A stretch of 63,385 bases of DNA. Origin: Acutalibacteraceae bacterium (GTDB lineage: Bacteria; Bacillota; Clostridia; Oscillospirales; Acutalibacteraceae). The notes under the pieces were generated by a model. The model was not told the origin of the DNA. It was given only the letters and a program-made list of their open reading frames with translations, and searched no databases. Both the position numbers and the translations under genes were made by a program. The stretch is from positions 1 through 63,385 of the forward strand of contig JAZRDY010000205.1 of NCBI GenBank assembly GCA_045660525.1. Reading direction: 5' to 3'. This document shows, piece by piece, positions 3,308 to 34,926 of the stretch (position 1 is its first letter; every line of letters starts with the position of its first letter).

Positions 3308-3415
3308 GCTTTTTACATCCTCTCCAAATAACTTTCAGGAAATACAGAGTATTTCTTATACTTTTATTATATATCCTGATTGTTAAAAAGTAAAGAAGCC
3401 AAAAGTCATATAAGG

Positions 3416-3444
3416 TTGATTTTACTTGCGATTTATGATACAAT
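3416..3444 (+). promoter_or_regulatory. Sigma-A-type promoter
   Basis: TTGATT, a 17-nt spacer, then TACAAT, about 30 nt upstream of the 3475 start. Confidence 0.55.
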
Positions 3445-3474
3445 TATCAAATAAAATACAAGGAGGATGACAAT

Positions 3475-5115
3475 ATGAAAAAAATAATCACAACAGTTCT
3501 TGTTATTGTTCTTATGTTCACTATGGTTACACCTGCATTTGCCGCAAACATAAGCGGTTGGGGCAGTCAGATTCCCATTGTTGAAATTTCAGGTGACGGT
3601 GAACCTCTTTATGATGGCGAGGGCAATCAGATTTTCAAAACTACCGATATTCTTTCGGGTTTAGGCGGCGGTGAAGAGGGCGAAGGTAATAATGAGCTCG
3701 TGAAGTCTGTGGCAAATGTTCTTGTACCTTTTGTTGTTGAGGGTGTTTTATTTGATGAGTGGGACGGCTACTACGAAAATCTCTATCTTGAGCTCAGTGA
3801 GCTTTTTAAGGCTTCGCATCTCAATAAAGACGGTACAGCACCCGAAGGCTCCGGACTCTCAGATGAAAGAAAAGCCGAAGTGGCAGCAAGAGTGGCAACC
3901 GATTTCAAAAAAGAAAGAGGCTGGTACGGCGACATAGATTATAAGTTCTTTTACGATTGGAGACTTGATCCTTGGGCTGTGGCTGAGGAGTTTCACAATC
4001 ATATAGAAAAGGTTAAGAAAACAACAGGTTCAAAAAAAGTCGCTATTATGGCTAAATGTCTCGGTACAAACGTTGTGCTTGCTTATGTTGCAAGATACGG
4101 AACAGACAGCATTTACGGCCTTGGCTTTGACGGCGGTACCGTTAACGGAATGGAACCGCTCAGTGATGCAATCAGCGGCAAGTTCGGTGTTGACGGAAAT
4201 GCAATTTCTCGTATACTCACAGACTGCAATTTCTATAACATTATGGATATAAGTCCGTTTATCATTCAGACTGTGGATATGGTAACTAAAACAGGTGTGC
4301 TTGACAGAGTTGTAGGCTTTACGGAGGAAATGCTTTATGCTAAATTGGTTGAGGGTATGACTTCAGCTCTTGCCCGTGCAACTGTTATGACCTGGCCGAG
4401 CTATTGGGCTGCTGTTACCGCTGAGGATTACGAAACAGCTATTAATTACGTTTTCGGTGATGAAAATGACCCCAAGAGAACAGAATATGCGGGTCTCATT
4501 GAAAAGCTTGATAATTATAACGATAATGTACGTCAGAGAATACCTAAGCTTCTTATGCAGGTTAAAAACAGTGGTGCAAACGTTGCCTTTATAGCTAAAT
4601 ACGGCTCACAGATGATTCCTACAAGCGAATCGGCAAAGCTCGTTGCAGACCAGTTTGTTTCTGTACACAGAGCATCCTTCGGTGCTACCACTTCTACTGT
4701 TTATGACACACTTTCAGATGATTACATTGCTGCCAGGAACGCAGCGGGTAAGGGAAAATATATTTCACCCGATAAGCAGATAGATGCTTCAACCTGTCTT
4801 TTCCCCGATTACACTTGGTTTATAAAAGGCAATAAGCATTCAAACTGGAGCTGGTGGGAAAACGATCTGATTTACACAGTTGTAACCGCTGACAGACAGC
4901 TTTCGATTGAAGATTTTGATTGCTCGCAGTTTGTGGTTTACAGACAAGACGGCAACTGGGCAGATAAGATGACAACTGAAAATTGTGATACTGAACAGTG
5001 GCTTGCAGAAGAAAAGCTCGACAAGCCTACAGATAAATACGGCAAGATTTTCGTTGCGGTGTCAAGCTTCCTGACATGGCTTATAAATCTTTTCAAATTG
5101 ATATTTAATAAGTGA
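3475..5115 (+). CDS. Secreted lipase/LCAT-like alpha/beta-hydrolase-fold protein with a C-terminal hydrophobic anchor
   Basis: The product has a signal peptide (MKKIITTVLVIVLMFTMVTPAFA). It carries the FFYDWRLDP motif typical of the LCAT/lipase family. The nucleophile-elbow-like segment reads IMAKCLGTN. An AAGGAGG SD lies upstream. Confidence 0.55.
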   Translation: MKKIITTVLVIVLMFTMVTPAFAANISGWGSQIPIVEISGDGEPLYDGEGNQIFKTTDILSGLGGGEEGEGNNELVKSVANVLVPFVVEGVLFDEWDGYYENLYLELSELFKASHLNKDGTAPEGSGLSDERKAEVAARVATDFKKERGWYGDIDYKFFYDWRLDPWAVAEEFHNHIEKVKKTTGSKKVAIMAKCLGTNVVLAYVARYGTDSIYGLGFDGGTVNGMEPLSDAISGKFGVDGNAISRILTDCNFYNIMDISPFIIQTVDMVTKTGVLDRVVGFTEEMLYAKLVEGMTSALARATVMTWPSYWAAVTAEDYETAINYVFGDENDPKRTEYAGLIEKLDNYNDNVRQRIPKLLMQVKNSGANVAFIAKYGSQMIPTSESAKLVADQFVSVHRASFGATTSTVYDTLSDDYIAARNAAGKGKYISPDKQIDASTCLFPDYTWFIKGNKHSNWSWWENDLIYTVVTADRQLSIEDFDCSQFVVYRQDGNWADKMTTENCDTEQWLAEEKLDKPTDKYGKIFVAVSSFLTWLINLFKLIFNK

Positions 5116-5127
5116 TAACTTTATACC

Positions 5128-5161
5128 AACCCCCGTCTAGAACAGACGGGGGGTTAATTTT
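5128..5161 (+). terminator. Intrinsic terminator
   Basis: CCCCCGTCT, loop AGAAC, AGACGGGGG hairpin followed by a T-rich tail. Confidence 0.8.
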
Positions 5162-5182
5162 TGAAAAAACTCAGCATATCTA

Positions 5183-5210
5183 TTGCAAAAATCATACTTT
5201 TTGGTAAAAT
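5183..5210 (+). promoter_or_regulatory. Sigma-A-type promoter with extended -10
   Basis: TTGCAA, a 16-nt spacer, then TGgTAAAAT. This argues against the TTG 5161 start in the ORF track. Confidence 0.55.
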
Positions 5211-5247
5211 AATAACTATAGTTCAAAACCATAGAAGGAGAGAAAAT

Positions 5248-6648
5248 ATGGATAAATTTTTTAAAATCACTGAACGCGGTTCAAATGTGAAAACAGAAAT
5301 TATTGCAGGTCTTACAACTTTCTTTGCAATGGCTTACATTATTGTTGTAAATCCTAATCAGCTTGTCGGCTTCAGCTTTGGTGTGCCCGGTGTTGACAAA
5401 ATCTGGAATGCGGTTTATATAGCATCAATTGTTGCGGCCGTATTCGGTACGCTTCTTTATGCTTTCTATGCTAAACTGCCCTTTGCTCAGGCTTGCGGTA
5501 TGGGCCTTAACTCGTTTTTCTTCACTTCGTTTGTGCTGCCTCAGATTATCAGCGGCGGTGATGTAATAAAGGGTTATCAGGCAGGTCTTGTTATTATATT
5601 TATTTCGGGTCTTGTTTTTATGATTTTGTCTGTGACAGGTGTGCGAAGCTATATTGCAAAGGCAATGCCCGACTGTATCAAAAAAGCAATTCCTGCGGGT
5701 ATCGGTTTGTTTATTGCTTTCATCGGCTTTCAGAATGTGGGTATCATTCAGGATAATCAGTATACACTGGTTCAGTTTGTAAAAATCAACGGTGCTTCAT
5801 GGAGTGATATTGCCCCTGCTATTGTTGCGCTTCTCGGTTTTGTTCTTATTGCTATACTTACAAAGCTCAACGTTAAGGGCGCGGTACTTCTCGGTATTCT
5901 TGCAACGACAGTTATTTATTATCTTGCAACCTGGCAGGTGCCTAATCTTGATATGAGTTCAGTTGCTCAGCCCTTCAAGGATTTCGCAGAAATAGGCATT
6001 ACAGGTATATTCAAGGCTGAGTCCTGGAAGAATGCATTCTCAGGTGAAATCATCGGCAGTGTATTTTCGGTAATTATGCTTATCGTTACATTCTGCCTTG
6101 TTGATATGTTTGACACAATAGGAACTCTTTACGGTGCGGCATCAGAAGCTGATATGCTTGATGAAAACGGTGACCCTGTTGATATTGACAAATCAATGAC
6201 TTGCGACTCTCTTGCTACTCTTGGCGGTTCAATCTGCGGTACATCAACGGTAACAACTTTCGTTGAATGTGCATCGGGTGTTGCGGCAGGCGGAAGAACA
6301 GGATTTGCCAGTGTTATAACAGCTGTTTGTTTTGCGGTATGCCTTTTTCTGTCACCTCTTGCGAGTATTATTCCTGCGGCAGCAACGGCTCCGGCGCTTA
6401 TCTTTGTCGGTGTGCTTATGCTTAAAAACTTCTCTAAGGTTGATATGGAAGATATGAGAAGTGCAGTGCCTGCATTCCTTACACTTGTTATGATGCCTCT
6501 TACCTATTCAATTGCCAACGGTATCGGCATCGGTGCAATGGCTTATGTTCTTATCACTGTATTCTCAGGTAAATTTACCAAAAAAGATATTGCAGTTACA
6601 ATTATCGCGATTCTCTTTGCGTGCAAGTTTGTTTTCGGCACTATGTAA
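5248..6648 (+). CDS. NCS2 family purine (adenine/guanine/hypoxanthine) permease
   Basis: The N-terminus MDKFFKITERGSNVKTEIIAGLTTFFAMAYIIVVNP is typical of AzgA/PbuG-type permeases, and the protein is multi-TM. The ATG at 5248 has an AGGAG SD. Confidence 0.85.
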   Translation: MDKFFKITERGSNVKTEIIAGLTTFFAMAYIIVVNPNQLVGFSFGVPGVDKIWNAVYIASIVAAVFGTLLYAFYAKLPFAQACGMGLNSFFFTSFVLPQIISGGDVIKGYQAGLVIIFISGLVFMILSVTGVRSYIAKAMPDCIKKAIPAGIGLFIAFIGFQNVGIIQDNQYTLVQFVKINGASWSDIAPAIVALLGFVLIAILTKLNVKGAVLLGILATTVIYYLATWQVPNLDMSSVAQPFKDFAEIGITGIFKAESWKNAFSGEIIGSVFSVIMLIVTFCLVDMFDTIGTLYGAASEADMLDENGDPVDIDKSMTCDSLATLGGSICGTSTVTTFVECASGVAAGGRTGFASVITAVCFAVCLFLSPLASIIPAAATAPALIFVGVLMLKNFSKVDMEDMRSAVPAFLTLVMMPLTYSIANGIGIGAMAYVLITVFSGKFTKKDIAVTIIAILFACKFVFGTM

Positions 6649-6752
6649 TCAAAAAAAGGTTATCCCCATCGGCAAACGGTGGGGATTTTGTATTTACAAC
6701 AGAAAGAAAATAATGTAAAATAGTATGACCATAAAAGAAAGGCGGGGAGACT

Positions 6753-7274
6753 ATGATACTGATTATATCGCAGATTATCGGACTTGCGGCAGTAGGTCTG
6801 TATCTTCTGAGTTATCAGCTGAAAAAACGGAAACAGATTGTCTGGGCTACTTGCATTTCCAATGCTTTTTATGTTTTGCAGTATGTATTACTCGGTGCAT
6901 TTTCGGGAGCGATTATGGATTTGCTTTCGGCTGCAGGCTCTTTCTTTGCGGGGAAGAAGCATTCGGCGCTTTTGAAAAAATACACCAAGTGGATTGCGGC
7001 AGCTAATCTCATTGTTATTGCGGGGGCGGGTCTTATAATTGCTGTAATGCAGCGCGACCCTATTGAACTTCTGCCTATTGCAGGTGCACTCTTTCAAACG
7101 GGTGGTCTTTGGTGCGAGAATGAGCAGACTATCCGCAAGTTCGGTTTGTGCGGTGCACCGTTCTGGCTCGTGTATAATTTTATTTCGCAGGCTTACGGAG
7201 CAGCTGTCGGCTCAGTGCTTATTATTGTGTCGGCGGTTACTGCCATGATAAGATACAGAGAAAAGAATGATTAA
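6753..7274 (+). CDS. YgjV-like inner membrane protein
   Basis: 173 aa and polytopic, with a GGGGAG SD. The family assignment is from memory of YgjV-like sequences. Confidence 0.5.
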   Translation: MILIISQIIGLAAVGLYLLSYQLKKRKQIVWATCISNAFYVLQYVLLGAFSGAIMDLLSAAGSFFAGKKHSALLKKYTKWIAAANLIVIAGAGLIIAVMQRDPIELLPIAGALFQTGGLWCENEQTIRKFGLCGAPFWLVYNFISQAYGAAVGSVLIIVSAVTAMIRYREKND

Positions 7275-22322: not shown

Positions 22323-22351
22323 TTGACATCGAAAAGAAAGGGTGTTAAAAT
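22323..22351 (+). promoter_or_regulatory. Sigma-A-type promoter
   Basis: TTGACA, a 17-nt spacer, then TAAAAT. This overlaps the track's 22323 start, which I therefore reject. Confidence 0.65.
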
Positions 22352-22382
22352 ATCAATAAATCAATATGAAAAGGAGATTTTT

Positions 22383-23852
22383 ATGAAAACAATAAAAAAA
22401 GTAATAGCATTGATTTTATGTGCGATGCTTCTGGGCTCTTGCTGTGCGGTGGCTTTCGCGGCAGATGGCTCAGATGTTGCAACAATCAGTGAAAACGGCA
22501 CGTCAAAAATTAAAGCTTTTTTTGAAGAAATCATTGCAAAAATCAAAAACTTTTTCCTGCAGATAGGAGATTTATTTGTGGGTGACAGGTTTACGGGCAG
22601 TGATTATACTATACCGATGCTGGATCTGAGTGTTATGCCCGACGAAATTAAGGGCACGGAATACGAATATCTTTATGAACTGACAACTGTAGATAAGTCA
22701 AAGGATTATATGGCGCATCCTGACAGCGTACTGCTGAAAAACGGAAATATTCTTACTGTGTACCCTGCCGGTCACGGTAAAGGTGCAGTGCTTAATAAGG
22801 TGAGCACCAACGGTGGCTTGAGCTGGAGTGAAACTGTCAGCAACACTCCGAAAAGCTGGGAAGATTCTCTTGAAACTCCCACAATTTACCGACTTCAGTT
22901 TTCAGACGGCAGTCCTGATAAACTGATACTTATATCAGCAAATCCCAAGTGGCCCAATATGTCCACTCCCGGCGGTTTTGAATGCTCAATCTCAGAGGAT
23001 GAGGGTAAAACCTGGACTGAGTTTGAAAGATTTTACGGCAAAGACAGCAAAAACTCAGTGGTACCTATTGTAGCTATGGCAAGTCTTACACGTCTCAAAG
23101 AAAACGGTGAGTTTGTTGATAAGTGGATGGGTATTTTTCACGATTCTGATTTATACAATTATAAGACAATTCTCTCTTTCGATGAAGACGGTAATATGCA
23201 GTGGAGCAAACCCGAAAAATTTCTTGCAGAGTACCGCAAAATAGAAAAGAGTGCTCAGATGTGTGAAATTGAGGTTATCCGTTCTGATAAGGGTCTGGGC
23301 GATGAACTTTGTCTTATTGCAAGAAGTCAGTCGAAGACAATCAACTCAATGGTTGCGTTTTCAACTGATGAAGGTAAAACATGGAGCGAACCCAAAGAGG
23401 CTCCCTCTGCTCTTAACGGCGAAAGACATAAAGCTGAATATACTTCAGACGGCAGACTGTTTATAACCTTCCGTTCTATTGAAAGAGGACCTAAGGCTAA
23501 AGCCTATTCTAAGGATGCGACAGACAGAAAACGCGGTTGGATAAGCGAGGGCCTTGTTGCTTGGGTCGGTACATATGAAGATCTCAAAAACGGCACAGAG
23601 GGCGATTACAGAATAAAGCTCGCTCATACATATATGAACGGTCAGACTGAGCCTGAATACTATGCAAACGGTGACACAGGTTATTGTGGCAATGTAGTAT
23701 TACCTGATGACACCATAGTCACTTGCAGCTACGGTAACTTCAGTGCCACAGAAATGCAGGAAAGCGGAGAAGAGCTTAAAACATTTATTTGTTCAAAGAG
23801 AATCAACCTCAAAGATACAGATGAGCTTGTGAAGAGATTTTTCGGCGAATAA
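22383..23852 (+). CDS. BNR/Asp-box repeat sialidase-like glycoside hydrolase, secreted
   Basis: A signal peptide follows the ATG at 22383 (AAGGAG SD). Asp-boxes are STNGGLSWSE, SEDEGKTWTE and STDEGKTWSE. Confidence 0.75.
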   Translation: MKTIKKVIALILCAMLLGSCCAVAFAADGSDVATISENGTSKIKAFFEEIIAKIKNFFLQIGDLFVGDRFTGSDYTIPMLDLSVMPDEIKGTEYEYLYELTTVDKSKDYMAHPDSVLLKNGNILTVYPAGHGKGAVLNKVSTNGGLSWSETVSNTPKSWEDSLETPTIYRLQFSDGSPDKLILISANPKWPNMSTPGGFECSISEDEGKTWTEFERFYGKDSKNSVVPIVAMASLTRLKENGEFVDKWMGIFHDSDLYNYKTILSFDEDGNMQWSKPEKFLAEYRKIEKSAQMCEIEVIRSDKGLGDELCLIARSQSKTINSMVAFSTDEGKTWSEPKEAPSALNGERHKAEYTSDGRLFITFRSIERGPKAKAYSKDATDRKRGWISEGLVAWVGTYEDLKNGTEGDYRIKLAHTYMNGQTEPEYYANGDTGYCGNVVLPDDTIVTCSYGNFSATEMQESGEELKTFICSKRINLKDTDELVKRFFGE

Positions 23853-25128: not shown

Positions 25129-25154
25129 CAGCACTCCGATTGGGGTGCTGTTTT
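25129..25154 (+). terminator. Intrinsic terminator of niaR
   Basis: CAGCACTCC, loop GATT, GGGGTGCTG, then TTTT. Confidence 0.75.
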
Positions 25155-25198
25155 GGCGCGCTTGAAGGAATTCGAATCCCCGACCTTTCGCTTAGGAG
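25154..25198 (-). pseudogene. Displaced 3' half of the split tRNA-Arg(CCU) (anticodon loop to CCA)
   Basis: The reverse complement reads CTCCTAA-GCGAA-AGGTC-GGGGA-TTCGAAT-TCCTT-CAAGCGC-G-CCA. The acceptor 3' strand is complementary to GCGCTTG at 34868-34874. Confidence 0.85.
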
Positions 25199-25339
25199 AT
25201 ATATAAGCAACACTTTATGTGTTCACTTGTTTTACCCTGTGATACCTCATAAGTCCTTATATAGCAAGGATTTTTAAATGTTTTTCTCCCTTATCATCAT
25301 TTTCAATATTTCTTAGTTTTCAGTAATGTTTTACCATTT

Positions 25340-25358
25340 TGTTTGCAAAATGTTTGCA
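25340..25358 (+). repeat. Two direct copies of TGTTTGCA (putative integrase/Xis arm-type sites, left arm)
   Basis: TGTTTGCA lies at 25340-25347 and 25351-25358. The same octamer recurs three times near the other island end. Confidence 0.6.
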
Positions 25359-25397
25359 AAAATATATTATTACTAAAGTACAAATTTCGATGATTCA

Positions 25398-25433
25398 TAA
25401 AACACAGAGTTCAATTGCGAGCTCTGTGTTTTA
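25398..25433 (-). terminator. Intrinsic terminator downstream of the two-gene cassette
   Basis: AAAACACAGAG pairs with CTCTGTGTTTT, with A and T runs on both sides. Confidence 0.7.
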
Positions 25434-25457
25434 GTAAAAGAGATAACGTAATTATTG

Positions 25458-27800
25458 TTATTTATACTCTTGTAAAATCTCTTCTCTATATTTTTCAATT
25501 TCCATAAGAACATTTTGATATTTAAAAGTTTCTATATCAAGAGTATTATACATTTCACGAATATCATCAAGTTCACTACAGTCGACTTTCTTAATCCTAC
25601 AATAACATCCCTTTGCATATTTGCTCAAAGCCCAAATTGTACCTGTTGGAATATCAAGGGGGTATCTGCCTACTTCTTTATTATCAATTTCTTCTTTCAT
25701 ATGTTGTATGTGGCTATTGATCGATTGCCATTCGCTTGTATATACATTACCCGTATACTCTATTTCTTGATTCATTGCGGTTAGTGTTGCATACATTCTA
25801 ATAGCAAAGCAAATTTCAGAATTGTTTTCTTTGTCGGGATGTTCTGATATCTCTTGCAATAAACTTTCAATATATTTTGAAGGCTCTATATTCAAAATAA
25901 ACAACATACAAATGTCCGCAAAAACCTCCCTAAAAAGCGTGTCAACATCATAACTCTCATCTACAAAACTGTAATTAAAAGAAAGCTTTATATTTTCATC
26001 ATCAATAAAATCAAGATTTGCTATCGCCTCCGGATTAAAATCATCTTGCAAAAAGAGATCTCGTAAAAGATTTTCCATACTGTTAGCTACACAGATTTTA
26101 TCAGTAGTGTTATAAACAATTATTTCACGCATCTCTCTTATTGTAAGGTTTTTTTCATGTCCTAAAAAAGCACGAAATTGTTGTTCAAAATAATTTTTTA
26201 AATTTTTATTGTTAGTACCATATACTCTTTCAATTAAAAGAGCAGCCATTGCCTCCGCATAATATTTTTTTCTTTTTTTTCTATTTCTTAACGATTCACC
26301 TACATAATGTGATATCTCATGACACAGATATCTTAATATTTTCTTAGGATTGTACAGATCACTTTCTGGTATTTGTATGCATACAATGCCCGGAATTTTA
26401 TCTGTAGCGGGAAAAATCTCCTGGGCACTGGCTAATTCACAAGGATGAGGAACTAACATAACTTCAGTATGCAAATATTTTTTATCACTATCACAGTATT
26501 TAAGAATTTTAGAACATTTATTTAAAAACGCAACAATATACTCTAACATAAATACTGGTATGTCATATATAACAGGTCTAATTTCTGGATTATGGGAAAG
26601 TTGTCCCTCAATTCGCATAAGTTGTTCTGAAAAGTAAGAACATTTTTCAACAAATTCATATAGATGTTCACTATGCAACAATTCCTCTTTTTCATGCTTT
26701 TCTATTATATCCTTAATATTTAACAGAAACGCCCTAACCCCAGGAGCAATTAAATATACAACTTCATCCATTATAGGTGTTTTACTCATTCTGACAAGCG
26801 AATGGGCAACTTCAGAAATAGCATGAAACCAACCCAAATCCAAATGTTCAGATTCGATAGAGTTCAAAATATGTTTACACAAACCAGATAATTCAGAACA
26901 AATTTTAGAATTTATCAACTCATTGTCCGGAGAAAAGTCTTGATAATTAGTAGATTCTATATCTATATAAACACCTACTTTTGTAGCAGATTCGGGCTTT
27001 CTATAATTTTTGTATTCATCTGAACACAATAATTTTTTATACAAATTGACCAAACTTGCAGATGCTCTATCTTTATATATAATCATGACATCATCTATAC
27101 CGTTTGTGCAATACTCTTCTCCCGGCGTCAAGCCATCTGATTTCATACATTCTTTAATAAGTTCAATCTGTTGCTTTGTTGTTTCCGTATTGTAACCTGA
27201 AAAACGCATTAAAAAAAATGGAATTATGTCATCGGGATCTGACCACATCGCATCAGAATATATGAGTTTTGAACTAATGCCAAAATATGTATAAGTTTTG
27301 CCGATATTTATACCGCTTATTTCTCGTAACCGCAAAATTTTTTCTATAAGTGTATTCATAGTTTTAGAACGAACATCTAAAACCATGTCACTAAACTCTG
27401 TAGCATAATATAATCTATATGACAAATTGCTTTGTTTTAATTCATTAGAAATTGCTTTTTTTATATCATTGAATTGTGTAGTTAATTTTATTGATGCAGG
27501 AAAATGGATACGAACAATTGCAACAAAGTTATTGCTATAATCGTTTACATATGAATTGGAATCATCTGGAATTAGGTACAGAGGATGATAATACACACTT
27601 TCATCATTGTTCTTAAATATTTTGTCCTTATCTTTTTTTATTTTAGAAAAGAAACCATCACAACTTTCATCAATATCATAAATATACATATCATCAAAAT
27701 GACCTAGAGTAATCCAATGAGTTGATTTAGGCGGTTCCCACTGCTTTTCGTCTGCCGATTTCAGACTTTTTCTCAATAATATTACACTAATTTCCTTCAT
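25458..27800 (-). CDS. 780-aa uncharacterised protein with a zincin HExxH motif (ImmA/IrrE-like core)
   Basis: A GGAGG SD lies 6 nt upstream of the ATG at 27800. HEISH is encoded at 26307-26321, followed 15 residues later by YYAEAMAALLIE. This resembles the HExxH...E-x-AN-x-FA-x-x-LL arrangement of COG2856 peptidases. I saw no P-loop or other motif I recognise. The gene is very AT-rich. Confidence 0.8.
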   Translation of the reverse strand: MKEISVILLRKSLKSADEKQWEPPKSTHWITLGHFDDMYIYDIDESCDGFFSKIKKDKDKIFKNNDESVYYHPLYLIPDDSNSYVNDYSNNFVAIVRIHFPASIKLTTQFNDIKKAISNELKQSNLSYRLYYATEFSDMVLDVRSKTMNTLIEKILRLREISGINIGKTYTYFGISSKLIYSDAMWSDPDDIIPFFLMRFSGYNTETTKQQIELIKECMKSDGLTPGEEYCTNGIDDVMIIYKDRASASLVNLYKKLLCSDEYKNYRKPESATKVGVYIDIESTNYQDFSPDNELINSKICSELSGLCKHILNSIESEHLDLGWFHAISEVAHSLVRMSKTPIMDEVVYLIAPGVRAFLLNIKDIIEKHEKEELLHSEHLYEFVEKCSYFSEQLMRIEGQLSHNPEIRPVIYDIPVFMLEYIVAFLNKCSKILKYCDSDKKYLHTEVMLVPHPCELASAQEIFPATDKIPGIVCIQIPESDLYNPKKILRYLCHEISHYVGESLRNRKKRKKYYAEAMAALLIERVYGTNNKNLKNYFEQQFRAFLGHEKNLTIREMREIIVYNTTDKICVANSMENLLRDLFLQDDFNPEAIANLDFIDDENIKLSFNYSFVDESYDVDTLFREVFADICMLFILNIEPSKYIESLLQEISEHPDKENNSEICFAIRMYATLTAMNQEIEYTGNVYTSEWQSINSHIQHMKEEIDNKEVGRYPLDIPTGTIWALSKYAKGCYCRIKKVDCSELDDIREMYNTLDIETFKYQNVLMEIEKYREEILQEYK

Positions 27801-27803
27801 ATT

Positions 27804-28970
27804 TTAACCTCCATTCTCTTTTAATATCATATTTTTCCCAAACTCAATTGCTTGGTTAATCTTTTCCCTGTTTTTTATATAATCAGGAAACAATGTATCT
27901 ATTATTTCATCAAAAAAACGGGTATATTCTTTTTGGGGTATTTCTTCACGTAAAATAGTTGTTAACTCTATCCTTCCGTCAAAAAAATACACCCACGTTA
28001 ACAAATATATAGTAGTTTTAGCAGAATCAGAAAAAGATTCAAATAAAACTCTATTTTCACTTGAAATAGAATCTAAAGTATATATGATGTTACTAACATC
28101 CCTAAGCAATAATGTAAAATCAACGGTAATATTTACATCTGTTGATTTGCGATTAAAATCAATAATTCTATATGTTATGTAACCGCTAACAATTTGGCAA
28201 ATAATATCTTCGCTTTTTGTTGCTTTTTTTAATCCTTTAAATATACTTTTAAAAATATCTATCTCTCGTTGTCTTGTATTTAAATTTTGGTCTGAAATAT
28301 TGTTTATGTTGAGATTATCCCAAACATGTAAAATCAAATCGAATTTGTTTTCCGTTTTATCATTTTTCAAGCTTTCTATAAATAAATCAGTGAAACATTT
28401 CAAATAGCTCCCATAATATTTAGCACCAACTTCTGGTAGATTTCCAGCCAAATTCAATACATTTATTTCCAAATCTTCAACATCTTTCATTTTTTCTTGC
28501 CAAGTTAGTTTTGCTAACTCCTCGCATTTTTTTGAACTAAGTATAATTTTATAAAAAACAATTCCCTGATACAAAAAACCTAACAATGTTGCTATCAATA
28601 ACAGAATAGAGCTTTCAGAAAGACCTGCCTTTGAAACAGCAATACAAGCTAATGTTGCAAAAAAATGAAACATTGCAAACAGCCCGTATAACGGAAATTG
28701 ACTATTCAAAATTTCCGAATAAGATATTGATAGCATTTTATTATCTATTTTTGCATATATCCAACCTATAAGTATATTAGTCAAACCAATAACCTTTATA
28801 ACTTCATATATTGAACTCGCTTGCAAAAACACAGGGCATCTCATTTTGAATTCTCCACCCAAAACGCTATGTCCTTTAAAGAATTCATAGTATAAAGATA
28901 CCACAACAAATATAGTTATAATAAAAAACAGCCAAAAAAAAGTTTTCTTCGTTTTTTCTTTATTATGCAT
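27804..28970 (-). CDS. 388-aa uncharacterised membrane protein (about 4 N-terminal TM helices plus a soluble C-terminal domain)
   Basis: A GGAGG SD lies upstream. Hydrophobic segments are FFWLFFIITIFVVVSLYY, VIKVIGLTNILIGWIYA, LYGLFAMFHFFATLACIAV and ILLLIATLLGFLYQGIVFYKIIL. The stop codon is 3 nt from the ATG of the next gene. Confidence 0.8.
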   Translation of the reverse strand: MHNKEKTKKTFFWLFFIITIFVVVSLYYEFFKGHSVLGGEFKMRCPVFLQASSIYEVIKVIGLTNILIGWIYAKIDNKMLSISYSEILNSQFPLYGLFAMFHFFATLACIAVSKAGLSESSILLLIATLLGFLYQGIVFYKIILSSKKCEELAKLTWQEKMKDVEDLEINVLNLAGNLPEVGAKYYGSYLKCFTDLFIESLKNDKTENKFDLILHVWDNLNINNISDQNLNTRQREIDIFKSIFKGLKKATKSEDIICQIVSGYITYRIIDFNRKSTDVNITVDFTLLLRDVSNIIYTLDSISSENRVLFESFSDSAKTTIYLLTWVYFFDGRIELTTILREEIPQKEYTRFFDEIIDTLFPDYIKNREKINQAIEFGKNMILKENGG

Positions 28971-29008
28971 AAATTAACCTCCGTTTTTTTATTCATCTGT
29001 GAGGGAAC

Positions 29009-29050
29009 AAAAATTGCCATTACAGTTTATATCCTGTAATGGCAATTTTT
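29009..29050. terminator. Perfect 17-bp hairpin (bidirectional terminator or insulator) upstream of the cassette
   Basis: AAAAATTGCCATTACAG, loop TTTATATC, CTGTAATGGCAATTTTT. Confidence 0.7.
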
Positions 29051-29083
29051 CTGTAAAGGCAACCTCACCAAAATAATCTATTA

Positions 29084-29278
29084 TTAGAGTTTGCCTATCT
29101 CTTTTGCACGCTTCCGATACACTGGACGAGAATAAACTTTCGTAGCTGCATAATAGGTTACAATAGGATTTGTAGTTGAAGAACGCTTGGTATCTAACTC
29201 TTTTTCTCTAATAGATTCCTCTTTTGCTTTGCTGTTAGGAACAGAGTTTCGGGAAAATCCGTAATACGACTTGTTCAA
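29084..29278 (-). CDS. 64-aa protein with a C-terminal excisionase/MerR-like HTH
   Basis: A TTG start has a GAGGTG SD 9 nt upstream. The C-terminal YYAATKVYSRPVYRKRAKEIGKL resembles HTH_17 (Xis-type) helices. This is a weak, memory-based call. Confidence 0.4.
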   Translation of the reverse strand: MNKSYYGFSRNSVPNSKAKEESIREKELDTKRSSTTNPIVTYYAATKVYSRPVYRKRAKEIGKL

Positions 29279-29674
29279 AGGTTAGTTTCACCTCTATTTG
29301 TAGACTCGCTTTACACGGCGATTATATAGCATAATACTTGAGGCCGTATGAAAAGCGGAAATAAATACAGTAGCATTATATGCTAAACATGTTTTTTTGT
29401 CAAGACCTTTTTTGTTTTGAATTATATTCATATTATAACCTGAAAATTCATCTACACTCCTAATTATAATTGCCCAAATATTAGGTATAAAGTGTACGAT
29501 TTTAATAAGCTTGTGTTGATCGTTCTCAAATCCAAATCTATTTTGAATGCCTTTACATAATATATAGTTTCTAAAATTAAAAAAAGTAACACAAAAAATT
29601 ATAAAATTGTAGAATTTGACAAAAAACAGCAAAAAAAGAGTTGGTTATTATCAAATTTAACACATCTAAATCCG

Positions 29675-29705
29675 CACCCACTTAATACGAGTGGGTGTTT
29701 TTTTA
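29675..29705 (+). terminator. Plus-strand intrinsic terminator with no recognisable upstream gene
   Basis: CACCCACT, loop TAATACG, AGTGGGTG, then a T8 run. Confidence 0.6.
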
Positions 29706-29749
29706 TATTATCAGACGTTTGTGAACATTTGATGAATATTTTAATCGAA

Positions 29750-30130
29750 TGGTGTGCATTTGCCCTTTCCTAGTGGGAATAGGTGAAAGGTATTTTTTAA
29801 TCCTTTCGTATGGAGAAAAAGTCTCCAAATGCACCTTGAAAATTAAAGATACATTTCATCAGATACATTACTTGTGTCGGCTTGATGGCCGAGCTGTGCT
29901 TGTAGGTGCGCCATAACCTTTCATATGAAAACGAGCGAAAAAAACTATACAACGAAAGCCGAGTTGCTCTCGGTGGTGGCGATAACAGACACAAGGGATA
30001 ATGATACTTCCGTAAGCGGCTGGCGGAATACCCGGCAGAGGTGAGATTCCTATGGATTCGGCTAGCAACCGAACGTCTGATGATTTCCCATGGTAAGAAT
30101 TGCCGATACAGGGGGGTGTTGAGAACAAAT
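29750..30130 (+). other. ORF-free, GC-enriched, hairpin-rich region (candidate structured RNA or leading-region element)
   Basis: No ORF here has an SD. Local helices include GGTGtGCATTT/AAATGCACC, CCTTTC/GAAAGG, GGAGA/TCTCC, CCGAG/CTCGG and TTCCG/CGGAA. A GTGCGCC string lies at 29906. Confidence 0.35.
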
Positions 30131-30263
30131 ACTGTATTATTAAATTCAAAAAGGTTTAAATCAAAATATGCGAACAAGGAGGTAAAAACAATGTTCAAAA
30201 AAATCACAGGACTTTAGGTAAAGTGAAGTCACCCTCAAAAAATAATACAAGGAGGAAAAACTA

Positions 30264-30353
30264 ATGATTCACGGTTTGCTTGTCTTGCCCGGTCTTTACA
30301 CAGCAGCATTTCTCCATATCATTGCGGCGATTGCAAATTTCATCGGAGGCTAA
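30264..30353 (+). CDS. 29-aa hydrophobic peptide coupled to the ParB-like gene
   Basis: AAGGAGG lies 7 nt upstream of the ATG. The product is MIHGLLVLPGLYTAAFLHIIAAIANFIGG. Its last codons contain the GGAGG SD of the gene starting at 30357. Confidence 0.5.
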   Translation: MIHGLLVLPGLYTAAFLHIIAAIANFIGG

Positions 30354-30356
30354 TGT

Positions 30357-31232
30357 ATGGCAGAGAATGAAATGCTTACTGATGTGCCATTAACACAAAT
30401 CCGTGATTTTCTTCATCATCCCTATCTCGTTAAAGACGATGAAAGTATGGATGAGCTTGTTGAAAGCATCAAGGAAAGAGGCTTGATACAGCCGGTCATC
30501 ATAAGACCTGTTGAAAACGGAATGTTTGAAATGGTGTCAGGGCACAGACGAAAAAGAGCTTTTGAAATTGCTGGGTATGAGAAAATACCCGCAAGAGTAA
30601 AAGAAATGTCAAGAGATGAGGCGATATTATCAATGGTGGACAGTAATCTTCAAAGAGAAACGGTTTTACCCTCGGAAAAAGCAAGAGCGTACAAAATGCG
30701 ACTTGATGCTTTAAGACGCCAAGCAGGAAGACCAACAAAGAATAATTCGGACCCGACGGGACCGAATTTAACAGGCACACGCTCAAATACTGAATTGGCT
30801 GCTGAGGTAAAAGAAAGTGAAACACAGATTAAAAGATATATCCGCTTGAATTATCTTGTACCCGAAATGCTTGACCTTGTTGACGAAGGTAAAGTAGCAA
30901 TGCGACCTGCGGTTGAAATTTCATACTTACCCGAAGAAATACAATATGACCTTTTGGAAGCTATGGAGTACAACGAAGTTACCCCGTCTCACGACCAAAC
31001 CATCCGTATGCGAAAGGCATATCAGGAAGGTAATCTCACAACAGAGGTTGTAGAGGAAATTATGGAAGAGCCTAAACCAAATCAAAAAGAAAAATCACCT
31101 TTCAGAGATAAGCGCATTGAAAGTGCTATCCCGAAAGGTGTACCCAAAGATAAATACTGTGATTTTGTTATCAAGGCTATTGAATTCTATAACCGATATT
31201 TAGAAAGAGTAAAAGAAAACCGTTCAAGGTAA
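30357..31232 (+). CDS. ParB N-terminal domain (ParB/Srx-like) protein of the conjugative element
   Basis: The pattern LIQPVIIRP...VSGHRRKRAFEIAG is a ParB-box. Confidence 0.8.
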   Translation: MAENEMLTDVPLTQIRDFLHHPYLVKDDESMDELVESIKERGLIQPVIIRPVENGMFEMVSGHRRKRAFEIAGYEKIPARVKEMSRDEAILSMVDSNLQRETVLPSEKARAYKMRLDALRRQAGRPTKNNSDPTGPNLTGTRSNTELAAEVKESETQIKRYIRLNYLVPEMLDLVDEGKVAMRPAVEISYLPEEIQYDLLEAMEYNEVTPSHDQTIRMRKAYQEGNLTTEVVEEIMEEPKPNQKEKSPFRDKRIESAIPKGVPKDKYCDFVIKAIEFYNRYLERVKENRSR

Positions 31233-31278
31233 TCTTTTGCTCTTATTTTTATTTCAAAAAAGAAAGGATAATTTTTTT

Positions 31279-31560
31279 ATGAACATCAAAGTAGAAATCA
31301 AGAAAATCTTTAAAGGCGAAAGACCTGTAAAGGCTTTTGCCGATGTTGTGATTGACGGCAGTATGGTCATTCACGGTGTCGCAGTTATCGAAAAGGACGG
31401 CAATAAGCTCGTTTCCATGCCCTACAAGAAATGGAAGACCAGCGAAGGTGAGCTTCGCCGCAGTGACATTGCCCATCCCATCACAACAGAAACCCGTAAA
31501 CAGATTTCCGATGCGGTACTTGCCGCTTATGAAATCGCAACAGATGAAAAATTCAATTAA
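31279..31560 (+). CDS. SpoVG family protein (element-borne paralogue)
   Basis: MNIKVEIKKIFKGERPVKAFADVVIDGSMVIHGVAVIEK...SMPYKKW...DIAHPITTETR matches the SpoVG pattern. I prefer the ATG at 31279. Confidence 0.7.
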   Translation: MNIKVEIKKIFKGERPVKAFADVVIDGSMVIHGVAVIEKDGNKLVSMPYKKWKTSEGELRRSDIAHPITTETRKQISDAVLAAYEIATDEKFN

Positions 31561-31580
31561 ATCTCAGGAGGTATTTATTT

Positions 31581-31847
31581 ATGTTTAAGAAAATCAAGTC
31601 ATTTTTTAAAGGTGTTTCATCAAAGGCAAAGTCAGCCGCAAAGAGTACAGAGGCTGTCATCAAGGCAAAGGTCATCAAGCTCCTCGTCGGCATCCGTGCC
31701 GAGGCTTATGTCGATACAGGTGTAAAAATCCTTATCGCAGTTGTTGTCGGTGCTCTTCTTCTCGGCGGTCTTTACGCTCTGTTCAACACAACGATTATGC
31801 CCACAGTTACACAGAAGATTCAGGAACTGTTTAACTACGCAGGCTAA
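31581..31847 (+). CDS. Small membrane protein, possibly pilin-like
   Basis: 88 aa with a Lys-rich N-terminus and one TM segment (ILIAVVVGALLLGGLYALF). An AGGAGG SD lies upstream, and the gene sits upstream of a prepilin peptidase. Confidence 0.5.
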   Translation: MFKKIKSFFKGVSSKAKSAAKSTEAVIKAKVIKLLVGIRAEAYVDTGVKILIAVVVGALLLGGLYALFNTTIMPTVTQKIQELFNYAG

Positions 31848-31922
31848 CGGTACTTTAAAATTTCAGGCGGAGTAGTTTAAAAGTGGCTGCTCCGCCACTT
31901 TTTTTCAAAGGAATGAAAAACA

Positions 31923-32610
31923 ATGATAAAAACAAGCTTAATTAACCCTATGTATCCTATTCTCCCTTTAGGGAATGTACCAGGTGTTGCTTACTCGGAT
32001 AAAGAAACTTTGTTTAACTTTATTGCTTCTCTTGCATATCTGACACTTATCCATCTGGTGTTGAGATTAGCTGTTAAGAAGGTACCCGAATACAAAAAGG
32101 AAAACAAGAAGGAAATGATAGTATGCCACATCATTACGGCAGGAGTATCTCTTGCTATGCTCCTTATGTTCGGTCTGTCGGATATGCTTATAAAAGGAAC
32201 TGTGTTCTACCTTATTCTTCTTTACTCATCACTTTCAGACAACCACACAAGAACATTGAATGATGCCGCTTCGATTATGGTGGTAATTACTTCGTTTATA
32301 GGTGCAGATGTATCAGATGTTCCCAAAATGGCCTTATCTGCCCTTGTTCTCTTTGGAGTATTTACTCATATTCGCCGTTGCAACAAACGGCGGTTTAGGC
32401 GGTGCTGATATTAAATTAACGGGTGCGTGTGCATTAGTTTTAGGCTTATGGAGCGCAACCTTCGGACTCATAGTTGGTCTGTGTCTTGCTATTGCTCATA
32501 CCCTCATTAAGTACAGAGGTAAAGATAAAAACGACGACCTTGCATTTCCTTTTGTTCCCTATCTTTCAATAGGATATATGGCAGGATTTTTCTTACAAGG
32601 AGGTTTTTAA
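31923..32610 (+). pseudogene. A24 family prepilin peptidase, frameshifted
   Basis: Two overlapping frames (31923-32408 and 32302-32610) together make one peptidase. The first Asp region (SLSDNHTRTLND) is in frame A and the GGADIKL motif is in frame B. The frame switch lies near 32340-32375. Confidence 0.65.
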
Positions 32611-32611
32611 A

Positions 32612-33295
32612 ATGAAAATGAAAAACAGAACCTTAATCGGTATTGTCTGTATCGTTTTGGCTGTTGCGGTGACATTCCTTGTTTCACCTCTTGTCAACAG
32701 AATATCCGAACAGAAAACCGATGTAATCCGCTTCACAAAGGATATTTCACACGGCAGTAAGATTGCTGAAACGGATATTGAAATTGTGAAGCTCTCAAAA
32801 AACAGCGTTCCCGAAAAGGCACTCAAAACAAAGGATGCCGTAGTAGGTAAATATGCAAAGGCTGATTTGTTCAAAGGTGACCTTGCAACAGAAATAAAGA
32901 TTACAGATGATGAAAACTCCGTAGCAAATGTTTTCAGCTCTCTTAACGGAGATAAGGTTGCTATGAGTGTAACCATCAATACCTTTGCGGGCGGTCTTTC
33001 GGGTAAGCTCGAAAACGGTGACATTGTAAGTGTTTATGTAACCGATAAGGAAGGCGAAACGAAGGTCCCGTCAGAGCTTAAATATGTTAAGGTAATCACC
33101 ACTACAACATCAGGCGGTGTTGATGAAACTGAGGTTGTGGAAAATGAGGACGGCAGTTTTGAGCTTCCCTCAACGATTACACTTCTTGTCTCCTCAAAGC
33201 AGGCTATGACCGCTGAGCTTATCTTTAACATGATTGTCCTTGTCGGCACAGTCAAAATGGCTGACCGTGTTGTTAAGGAAATGATGGGACTTTAA
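32612..33295 (+). CDS. CpaB/SAF-domain Flp-pilus-assembly-like protein
   Basis: An N-terminal TM segment is followed by an SAF-like region (VIRFTKDISHGSKIAETDIEIVKL). An AGGAGG SD lies upstream. Confidence 0.6.
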   Translation: MKMKNRTLIGIVCIVLAVAVTFLVSPLVNRISEQKTDVIRFTKDISHGSKIAETDIEIVKLSKNSVPEKALKTKDAVVGKYAKADLFKGDLATEIKITDDENSVANVFSSLNGDKVAMSVTINTFAGGLSGKLENGDIVSVYVTDKEGETKVPSELKYVKVITTTTSGGVDETEVVENEDGSFELPSTITLLVSSKQAMTAELIFNMIVLVGTVKMADRVVKEMMGL

Positions 33296-33316
33296 TGACA
33301 AAGGAGCTGATGCTAT

Positions 33317-33694
33317 TTGGAAGTAAAGATAAACCGTGAAATCGGTGACTATACCGAAAGTGTCTACTTCGGTCTGTCACTTCGTCAATTTATCTTTTCC
33401 ATTCTTGCCTGCGGTGTAGCCGTAGGCTTGTACTTTTTACTCAAACCTTTATTCGGTATAGAAACCTTGAGCTGGGTGTGCATCTTGGGTGCGGCACCCT
33501 TTGCGGCAATAGGCTTTTTCAGTTGGCACGGTATGACAGCAGAAAAGGCTTTCTTTGCTTACCTTCGCTCTGAAATCCTTATGCCGAATGAACTTAAATT
33601 CAAATCAATTAATCTTTATGACGAAATAGAAAGGAGTGATAAGGATGTTCGACTTACTCGGAAAGCTGAAAAGCCTCGTAGGAATAAGCGATAA
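33317..33694 (+). CDS. PrgI/TcpE-like conjugative membrane protein
   Basis: MEVKINREIGDYTESVYFGLSLRQFIFSILACGVAVGLYF is typical of the PrgI family N-terminus. A TTG start has an AAGGAG SD. Confidence 0.6.
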   Translation: MEVKINREIGDYTESVYFGLSLRQFIFSILACGVAVGLYFLLKPLFGIETLSWVCILGAAPFAAIGFFSWHGMTAEKAFFAYLRSEILMPNELKFKSINLYDEIERSDKDVRLTRKAEKPRRNKR

Positions 33695-33911
33695 TTTCGG
33701 TGACGGTATGGCTGTTCCTAAGTCTGTGCAGGATGCAATAGATATAAGAGCAGTTTATCCCGATGGCATTTTTCTTGTCGGTAAAGACAGATATTCAAAG
33801 GTCTTTAAGTTTACCGATATTAACTATGCCGTAGCAAGTAAAGAGGATAAGGAAACAGACTTTTTTAAGTACAGTGATATTCTTAGCACTAATGTTGAAG
33901 AAAAGATATAA
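33645..33911 (+). pseudogene. N-terminal stub (about 80 codons) of a VirB4-like conjugal ATPase
   Basis: KSVQDAIDIRAVYPDGIFLVGKDRYSKVFKFTDINYAVASKEDKE resembles the N-termini of CD1110-type VirB4 ATPases (recalled from memory). The reading frame ends at 33911, where about 700 more codons would be expected. Confidence 0.5.
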
Positions 33912-34398
33912 CGATATTCAAGAACTTATAGACCTTTTTGGGGAAGAATATTATGACTATAATTTGGTGTTTTGTTCGCCCAACGGAAGACCAATGGAAA
34001 GTCAAGTTATAACAAGAGCTTTACAAAAACTTATCAAAGAAAACAATTTACCAAACATCGTTTTTCATAGTCTAAGACATTCAAGCGTCACATATAAGTT
34101 GAAGTTGAACAGTGGTGATATAAAAGCTGTCCAAGGTGATTCAGGACACTCACAAGTTAAAATGATAACGGATATTTATTCTCATATACTCGATGAAGAT
34201 AGAAAGTACAATGCAATCAAATTTGAAAATGCTTTTTATTCTAATCAATCAAACTCTTGCTCGGGAAAAAAGTCAAATGAGGAGAATTCATTATCTTCAA
34301 ATAACTCAACTGAAAATGATGTCGAAGTTCTTTTAGAGTTGATTCAAAACCCAGAAATGAAAGACTTAATAAAAATGTTAGCAAGTTCATTAAAATAA
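33835..34398 (+). pseudogene. C-terminal catalytic fragment of a tyrosine recombinase/integrase
   Basis: FHSLRHSSVTY (the R-H-x-x-R box region) and GHSQVKMITDIYSHI (the H...Y catalytic tail) are present. The frame opens only at 33835. The N-terminal SAM-like/arm-binding part is missing. Confidence 0.75.
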
Positions 34399-34399
34399 G

Positions 34400-34436
34400 A
34401 AGTGGCTGTTTCACGAAAGTGCAACAGCCACTTTTA
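34400..34436 (+). terminator. Intrinsic terminator after the integrase remnant
   Basis: AAGTGGCTGTT pairs with AACAGCCACTT, followed by Ts. Confidence 0.65.
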
Positions 34437-34496
34437 ACTAAAGCAATAATCATAAAATGTTTAAAAAACAACTTAAAAAACTTGATTTTACTATAA

Positions 34497-34567
34497 TGTT
34501 TGCAGTTTGTTTGCAAACGCCCAAAATGCACTCTATTTTCTGCTTTTTTTGCTAACATTTGTTTGCA
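34497..34567 (+). repeat. Three direct copies of TGTTTGCA (putative arm-type sites, right arm)
   Basis: Copies lie at 34497-34504, 34508-34515 and 34560-34567, in the same orientation as the two copies at the left end. Confidence 0.6.
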
Positions 34568-34695
34568 TTACCAAACACTTTTTTACGGAACACCAATCTA
34601 ATAAATTATTAAAACTCTATGTGTGTTGACGCAATGGAAACAAAAAACAAAAGTGCTAAAAAACCGTTGTATTAAAGGCTTTCAAGCACTTAGGT

Positions 34696-34770
34696 TGGCA
34701 CCCTCTACCGGAATCGAACCGATATCTAAGTCTTAGGAGGACCTTATTCTATCCGTTGAACTAAGAGGGC
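34696..34770 (-). tRNA. tRNA-Arg (anticodon CCU), element-borne
   Basis: A manual cloverleaf fits: GCCCTCT-TA-GTTC-AACGGATA-GAAT-A-AGGTC-CTCCTAA-GACTT-AGAT-ATCGG-TTCGATT-CCGGT-AGAGGGT-G-CCA. It contains several G-U pairs. Confidence 0.8.
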
Positions 34771-34834
34771 ATATTAAATTATTAAGCACATAAATCAAAC
34801 ACTTTTTGCAAAAAGGTGTTTTGTTTAACTAACC

Positions 34835-34874
34835 CTTAGGAGGCGAACGCTCTATCCGGCTGAGCTACAAGCGC
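34835..34874 (-). pseudogene. 5' half of the split chromosomal tRNA-Arg(CCU)
   Basis: The reverse complement reads GCGCTTG-TA-GCTC-AGCCGGATA-GAGC-G-TTCGC-CTCCTAA-G and then diverges into island sequence. Confidence 0.85.
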
Positions 34875-34897: not shown

Positions 34898-34926
34898 ATT
34901 TTACCACCCTTCAGGATTAAAGTCAA
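34898..34926 (-). promoter_or_regulatory. Sigma-A-type promoter of the (now split) tRNA-Arg gene
   Basis: On the minus strand: TTGACT, a 17-nt spacer, then TAAAAT, about 24 nt upstream of the tRNA 5' end. Confidence 0.6.

Follow-up and report, generated by a model that had tools for sequence, protein, structure and literature searches.

The window analyzed here, a 63-kb contig (JAZRDY010000205.1, 63,385 nucleotides) from a metagenome-assembled genome of an Acutalibacteraceae bacterium (assembly GCA_045660525.1), contains between mrp and niaR a transfer RNA (tRNA) gene, tRNA-Arg(CCU), whose two halves lie on the minus strand on either side of an insertion of 9,644 bp (25199-34842) that carries conjugation genes and, near one end, a second and complete tRNA-Arg(CCU) gene. 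The GC-rich 5' half (34874 to 34835) reads GCGCTTGTAGCTCAGCCGGATAGAGCGTTCGCCTCCTAAG and begins 24 nt downstream of a TG-extended host promoter of sigma-70 type (TTGACT-17 nt-TAAAAT; 34898-34926, minus strand). The 3' half, which extends from the anticodon loop to an encoded CCA (25198 to 25154), reads CTCCTAAGCGAAAGGTCGGGGATTCGAATTCCTTCAAGCGCGCCA and abuts the niaR terminator. Loci from other assemblies with which the window was compared are designated by L-numbers (L002, L039 etc.).

The split tRNA-Arg(CCU) gene

When 25199-34842 is deleted in silico, ARAGORN calls a 77-nt tRNA-Arg(cct) in the joined sequence, with Watson-Crick pairs throughout the acceptor stem (7/7) and the anticodon stem (5/5). 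An earlier note on this DNA had read the locus as a tRNA-Arg(CCU) gene split in the anticodon loop by a 9,644-bp insertion and had proposed such a check; the sequence reads as described there, and the joined sequence is accepted as a tRNA. Joining the same 3' half to the 5' half of the window's other tRNA gives no tRNA call, and among 300 random joins a tRNA is present in one; neither half fits any partner but the other. The minus-strand core CTCCTAAG is present in both halves, and its plus-strand form CTTAGGAG has three copies, at 25191-25198, at 34835-34842 and, within the intact tRNA-Arg(cct), at 34732-34739. Since these 8 bp correspond to the anticodon loop and one stem base of any such tRNA, the repeat alone is no independent evidence of target duplication; what shows the split is how the two halves fit together. 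The gene is restored at neither junction, as the earlier note had stated for the junction next to the 5' half; the element-side flanks consist of a spacer and of one arm of the attachment site (both described below) and contain no tRNA halves.

The T-arm of the rejoined tRNA is unusual in having A53-U61, where all 11 others in an alignment of twelve tRNAs have G53-C61. This oddity had been tentatively attributed to decay after disruption, an explanation that is not supported here: both sides are changed and the pair is kept, which points instead to a functional variant that existed before the insertion, and the comparison suggests that selection explains such a pair-keeping double change better than random decay does. 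Two G-U pairs in the T-stem of the rejoined tRNA may be later C-to-T changes. In minimum-free-energy folding, the z-scores of the tRNAs were near 0. A trans-spliced split tRNA was also considered and was rejected, the flanks of the half-genes having by inspection only ~5 nt of complementarity and the host being bacterial.

The intact tRNA-Arg(CCU) gene within the insertion

An intact, AT-rich tRNA-Arg(CCU) gene with encoded CCA lies on the minus strand at 34696-34770 (ARAGORN; Rfam tRNA, 55.9 bits; tRNA alignment), 64 bp inside the right junction, where it was overlooked by the earlier note. Its isotype and anticodon are those of the split GC-rich gene and its sequence is unlike it, and besides this copy no second tRNA-Arg(CCU) is visible in the window, the split gene aside. 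By its sequence the element copy probably supplies decoding in place of the broken host gene; the contention that the chromosomal tRNA is genuinely broken thus holds for the host gene itself, but the function of tRNA-Arg(CCU) was probably kept. The AT-rich class to which the element copy belongs is characterized by 75 nt including CCA, a short D-loop and a conserved G1-U72 wobble, and is seen both as host and as element-borne genes (window 34696-34770, L016, L018, L020 and L023) and as stubs (L022, L023 and L025).

Between the crossover core and the element tRNA is a conserved spacer (34771-34834, minus strand) that aligns with L002, L012, L022, L023 and L024. A conserved hairpin candidate in the spacer (-1.4 kcal/mol) has no convincing covariation support, and a search for the spacer motif in viral contigs returned 0 matches.

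Ends of the element and its attachment site

The two ends of the island can be read as the arms of a former attachment site of the element (attP), namely a non-coding left end of 259 bp (P' arm; 25199-25457, minus strand), which has a homologous end in L039, and the stretch from the integrase stop codon to the element tRNA (P arm; 34399-34695, minus strand). The 8-mer TGCAAACA has 8 copies in the 63-kb window, of which 5 are on the minus strand in the two arms: a tandem pair in the P' arm (25340-25347 and 25351-25358, 11 bp apart), and in the P arm a second pair (34497-34504 and 34508-34515, also 11 bp apart) and a single copy (34560-34567). When the arms are shuffled, five copies of TGCAAACA are reached in 0 of 20,000 cases, and an 8-mer of any sequence reaches five copies in 9 of 2,000. 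Full-length relatives of the integrase carry N-terminal SAM-like domains, matching a lambda-like layout of arm sites. The repeats are candidate arm-type sites to which the integrase may bind, and by their arrangement the pairs tie both ends of the island to one putative attP of lambda type, in which the circular order would be P' arm, core, 64-bp spacer, tRNA, P arm and integrase, with the tRNA gene inside attP.

The position of the boundary is documented by L039 (GCA_054297585.1), in which the same two cargo genes (described below) and a homologous P' end are joined at CTTAGGAG to a host tRNA half that is not the one in the window: it is the 3' half of an AT-type tRNA-Arg(CCU) gene, and its genomic context is different too. 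The window and L039 have unrelated tRNA halves to the left of the core and are homologous to the right of it; therefore the element boundary is fixed at the core, and insertion is site-specific into the anticodon loops of tRNA-Arg(CCU) genes. These comparisons support the original proposal of a site-specific event of tyrosine-integrase type in the anticodon loop. The arm-site pair TTGTTTGCAAAATGTTTGCAA is identical at 21/21 positions between the window and L039, in a surrounding region that is ~70 % identical. With both attachment (att) cores identical, arm-site pairs present on both arms and the pair kept in L039, the remnant might still be excised in trans. The possibility that the element supplies a new 5' half was rejected, as no tRNA 5' half precedes the left core and the halves of the intact tRNA co-vary.

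Recurrence of the stub-core-spacer-tRNA layout

The order stub, core, spacer and complete tRNA is found in seven independent loci (L002/L003, L012, L022, L023, L024 and L025). In L012, L024 and L022, three different stubs are each followed by one and the same element 5' half (GTCCCTGTAGCTCAGCTGGATAGAGCGACCGC) and its spacer; spacer and tRNA therefore move as part of the element, and the stubs are what remains of the host genes. L012 and L024 have the same complete tRNA, and in L022 the copy of the GTCCCTGTAGCTCAGCTGGATAGAGCGACCGC-type element has been turned into a stub in its turn. A full-length integrase gene lies ~200 bp beyond the tRNA and convergent with it in L023 and L025, the same arrangement as in the window, and in L002 a distal orphan 3' half and the stub rebuild a tRNA on in-silico excision. 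The most elaborate case is L023 (12174-12537), in which three tRNA-Arg(CCU) 5' stubs (one AT-type and two GC-type) precede a complete AT-type tRNA and a full-length integrase; the simplest reading of this array is a series of invasions, each into the tRNA of the previous element. To judge from these loci, the architecture is a family trait of conjugative elements of gut Clostridia. In the L023 array a spacer follows each stub, and two of these include a pseudo-3' half that is shortened and has a T-loop-like TTCGAATCC.

Gene content and decay of the inserted element

The right part of the island is a series of plus-strand genes of a conjugative backbone. A pemK RNA motif (29998-30055; Rfam RF02913, 70.7 bits against a gathering score of 34.8) lies near the start of the conserved backbone, upstream of a ParB-like gene (30357-31232; ParB_N, 3.6e-19) that has 90-94 % DNA identity to the backbone in L031-L040; intact relatives have a 29-aa open reading frame (ORF) between the region of the motif and ParB. 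There follow a SpoVG-like gene and a single DUF6133 gene (31237-31847), the latter in 3-5 tandem copies in intact relatives, and a prepilin peptidase (A24) gene present as two overlapping ORFs (31923-32610) in place of the single 228-aa gene of relatives, which is probably a frameshifted pseudogene, the alternative being a sequencing error in the assembled genome. Next come an RcpC/CpaB pilus-assembly gene (32612-33295), whose homology to intact relatives ends at ~33206, a PrgI-family component of type IV secretion (33317-33694; PrgI, 3.2e-27; identical protein on 156 contigs), and the N-terminal 54 residues of a VirB4-like conjugation ATPase of the CD1110 family (33636-33883; NF045971 profile positions 1-54 of 752), cut at ~33884. 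The VirB4 stub directly abuts a C-terminal fragment of a tyrosine integrase (33884-34398, a 174-aa ORF convergent with the element tRNA), which matches positions 87-170 only of the Phage_integrase profile and aligns to residues 294-461 of the 466-aa integrase of L023 (48 % identical), ~290 N-terminal residues being missing; homology to the integrase relative begins at 33884.

In ten loci with an identical DUF6133 protein (L031-L040) the backbone is intact and comprises ParB, SpoVG, the DUF6133 copies, the peptidase, a 247-aa RcpC and then further pilus genes, with a Tad-type ATPase and a 1,500-aa adhesin. Identity between the window and the intact backbone is 90-97 %, over a match that begins at ~29,556-30,163 and ends at 33,206 inside RcpC. 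Because of this match and of the breaks in homology, the island is understood as a single conjugative element that has undergone two or more large internal deletions (~33,206 and ~33,884); that at ~33206 appears as an internal deletion junction at which the Tad-type ATPase and downstream genes would have been removed, and DUF6133 copies have also been lost. The Pfam and NCBIfam scans covered the larger ORFs of the island, a few of 60-108 aa being left out. No relaxase or coupling protein was found in the protein family scans, neither integrase nor VirB4 is complete, and the 9.6-kb remnant is, from its gene content, predicted to be unable to move by itself. The same scans found no transposase domain; terminal inverted repeats were not specifically searched for. 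Comparison of the island with plasmid and phage records by megablast gave no match, and in PHROGs the integrase is the only match among the proteins scanned, the genes of the island being conjugation genes (PrgI, VirB4, ParB and RcpC). On this gene content the carrier is identified as a conjugative element and not a temperate phage.

The conjugative backbone, as traced by identical DUF6133 and PrgI proteins on >150 contigs, is found elsewhere beside tRNA-Gln or downstream of a lysyl-tRNA synthetase gene (L031-L040); as these integration sites differ, the backbone is evidently combined with different integration modules. The number of DUF6133 copies across backbone loci ranges from 1 to 5. The 120 best homologues of the integrase fragment are all short (120/120 of 109-305 aa), and in many of them an unrelated N-terminus (PemK, ParA/Mrp, MobA/L, ABC ATPase, AbiEii or Bro-N) is joined, at a point that differs from case to case, to the same integrase C-terminus; truncated integrase ends related to the island fragment are very common in gut metagenomes. 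Abundant C-terminal fragments of this kind would be expected if trimming deletions must spare the tRNA and the adjacent end of the integrase. A 'suicidal' integrase of SSV type, with attP inside int, was considered and rejected, because the truncation breakpoints vary and full-length integrases lie beside the tRNA in integrated copies.

The left part of the island is occupied by two minus-strand cargo genes of low GC content (28-31 % in the cargo region). The first (25458-27800) encodes a 780-aa protein with an HExxH motif, in which H494, E495 and H498 are invariant among ~115 homologues; the homologues are 770-800 aa in length, come from Oscillospiraceae and Eubacteriales and have no Pfam domain. 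The second (27804-28970) is paired with it and encodes a 388-aa protein with an apparently hydrophobic N-terminus (translation inspected by eye). L039 has the pair at 3292-6815, with a 784-aa homologue of the 780-aa protein at the same position and a 388-aa gene at the homologous one, in a region ~81 % identical at the DNA level. The cargo proteins have no match in Pfam, NCBIfam, PADLOC, PHROGs or PDB sequences. A structure model of the 780-aa protein is confident (predicted local distance difference test (pLDDT) 87, predicted template-modeling score (pTM) 0.88); compared with PDB folds it has none at E<0.001, its N-terminal third weakly resembling repeated ferredoxin-like folds. Outside the island, a gene for a protein with BNR repeats (sialidase-like) lies at 22323-23852 between GntP permease and isochorismatase genes, and is present in L017, L018 and L019 and absent in L016.

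The niaR-mrp locus in relatives and the origin of the split

The arrangement described above probably arose when a conjugative element split the resident GC-rich tRNA-Arg(CCU) gene and brought its own complete copy, the island now being a decayed remnant. Several observations weigh against this reading. L016, L018 and L020 (NiaR 77-84 % identical) have the same niaR ... mrp neighbourhood without island and without stub, and carry an AT-rich tRNA-Arg(CCU) at the exact site of the window gene, downstream of the host promoter (34898-34926 in the window), which they have kept. The D-arm, T-arm and loops of the L016/L018 tRNA are identical to those of the element tRNA, and all nine differences are compensatory stem changes. 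No intact GC-rich tRNA was found in the closest relatives, and an exact search for it, with the T-stem left free, gave 0 matches in 185,579 species representatives. Further, no consensus promoter was found in the 64-bp spacer, tRNA-Arg(CCU) is dispensable in some bacteria, which bears on whether the cell would need the element copy, and the contig comes from a metagenome-assembled genome. An empty site, which the earlier note had suggested looking for, was found in the sense that L016 and L020 have island-free niaR-tRNA-mrp alleles, but their tRNA is AT-rich and not of the split GC-rich type. The L020 tRNA differs from the element tRNA at several more positions. In the closest NiaR relatives (86 %, L028-L030), the available sequence beyond the niaR terminator contains no tRNA; a NiaR-based search for the locus in the 185,579 species representatives found no relative, and exact look-ups of NiaR and Mrp returned no records.

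The AT-rich tRNA of L016, L018 and L020 is an argument for an alternative in which the tRNA at 34696-34770 is the native gene, and the GC-rich halves, the spacer and the island are debris of at least two earlier, partly deleted elements. The window copy is closest to theirs, and serial integrations do occur, as in the three-stub array of L023. This alternative is nevertheless unlikely: the AT-rich tRNA is nested inside two cognate GC-rich halves, which are placed exactly as a gene would be (24 nt after the host -10 and 4 nt from the niaR terminator); both flanks of the tRNA are element sequence (family spacer upstream and arm sites downstream); homology between the window and the relatives at this site is confined to the tRNA itself; and several deletions would be needed, ending precisely at the borders of the tRNA halves. 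The topology, the position of the GC-rich halves with respect to promoter and terminator, and the element sequence on both flanks of the AT-rich tRNA argue that the GC-rich gene was resident when the element arrived. For the AT-rich gene of L016, L018 and L020 there are then two possibilities: it came from an earlier element, or the window element took its tRNA from that clade. In L020 (760-1016) the last 22 nt of the native tRNA-Arg(CCU) (TCGATTCCCGCAGGGGGTGCCA) are repeated ~150 bp downstream, the scar left when a different integration, of T-loop type, took place in this gene; because of this repeat the niaR-mrp tRNA site is regarded as a general hotspot.

A classical element that once restored the tRNA, and from which deletion or mutation later removed the restoring 3' half, would fit with the heavy deletion of the island and with the classical ends (core and 3' half) that occur in related elements, for example at L002 11839-11883. 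It is quite improbable, however, in that the sequence after the core is the family spacer, conserved in five other loci, with no degraded 3' half, and that the complete tRNA stands at a fixed distance in all those loci. An assembly chimera, or a transposon with an 8-bp target-site duplication, is scarcely credible: the origin of the contig in an assembled metagenome and the fact that 8 bp is a common target-duplication length speak for it, but the junction architecture is shared by independent assemblies from other samples, an 8-bp overlap should be unable to drive a k-mer misjoin, no transposase was found among the larger ORFs of the island, and the repeat is always the same anticodon-loop sequence, with insertion at an identical sequence in all loci.

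Proposed mechanism

For the preferred reading, in which the element broke the resident gene and installed its own, the following course is proposed. A conjugative element of gut Clostridia would integrate by tyrosine-recombinase crossover within the 8-bp core, its target being the anticodon loop plus one stem base of the GC-rich tRNA-Arg(CCU) between mrp and niaR. Because attP shares only this core with the target, neither junction would rebuild a tRNA; the complete tRNA-Arg(CCU) gene in attP would come in with the element. After integration the host 5' half would persist as a stub behind the host promoter, which would now face stub, spacer and element tRNA, and the element tRNA just downstream is presumed to take over decoding of AGG. 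As the spacer has no consensus promoter, read-through from the host promoter is a plausible source of transcription, and we infer that the element tRNA is expressed and compensates for the loss. Later decay would have removed most of the integrase, nearly all of VirB4, and the Tad-pilus and transfer genes, both att sites being kept. The split is recent relative to species divergence.

Comparison with known systems and significance

The closest parallel is tRNA-dependent lysogeny in actinobacteriophages (Fionnbharth, Cluster K4/L; Guerrero-Bustamante & Hatfull 2024), in which the core is 10 bp and the tRNA is not rebuilt (PMC10865867); in mycobacteriophages a phage tRNA of the same isotype is required for lysogeny, as shown experimentally in 2024, and prophage Lj965 of Lactobacillus johnsonii is cited as a probable further case (PMC10865867). 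The present system has in common with these phages a tyrosine integrase, an attB in a tRNA gene, a short core without rebuilding and an element tRNA of the same isotype. It differs in that the carrier is a conjugative element and not a temperate phage, that the target is tRNA-Arg(CCU) in Clostridia, that attP itself contains the element tRNA, placed between core and arm sites at 64 bp from the core and not elsewhere in the genome, and that repeated invasions appear to leave arrays of 5' stubs.

Among conjugative elements, ICEMh1 and ICEPmu1 of Pasteurellaceae have a direct repeat of 11 bp that corresponds to the anticodon loop of tRNA-Leu(UUG) (PMC6861422), and are in this respect like the element described here. 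Unlike it, ICEMh1 supplies the displaced part, so that one complete tRNA is present at the junction, and integrase lineage, host phylum and tRNA are different; the same paper mentions that upstream of the full-length tRNA there is another, disrupted copy (PMC6861422). Classical anticodon-loop islands, as they are presented in Williams (2002) and for the Islander database (PMC4383910), carry the displaced tRNA fragment and regenerate the gene. They resemble the present case in that crossover occurs within a 7-nt anticodon loop flanked by a symmetric stem and that the integrase lies beside the att site, and differ in that the insertion analyzed here does not regenerate its target gene. In the literature on tRNA-dependent lysogeny and related integration, of which coverage was incomplete, no conjugative element with a tRNA-replacing strategy was found. 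The strategy has so far been described for some phages, and the sequences analyzed here indicate that the logic of tRNA-dependent lysogeny probably also operates in a conjugative element; this would extend tRNA-dependent integration from mycobacteriophages to conjugative elements of abundant gut Clostridia, in the form of a compact module of int, tRNA and attP with the tRNA gene embedded in the attachment site. In genome annotation, loci of this kind easily give rise to miscalls of 5' tRNA stubs and of tRNAs borne by elements, and island mapping tools that seek a regenerated tRNA and a 3' fragment will miss or misplace such elements.

A broader and more tentative possibility is that tRNA-Arg(CCU) in gut Clostridia is turned over horizontally, each invader splitting the resident gene and installing its attP copy, which becomes the target of the next. 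If so, arrays of 5' stubs such as the three in L023 would document successive invasions in fossil form, the tRNA-Arg(CCU) genes of close relatives at one locus would be quite different, as are the GC-rich and AT-rich genes at niaR-mrp, and remnants with the tRNA and the 3' end of the integrase would persist because they can no longer be safely deleted. If the tRNA does make the remnant hard to lose, it would provide a simple means of self-anchoring for a mobile element, and the process could be a route for the exchange of a core translation gene between species.

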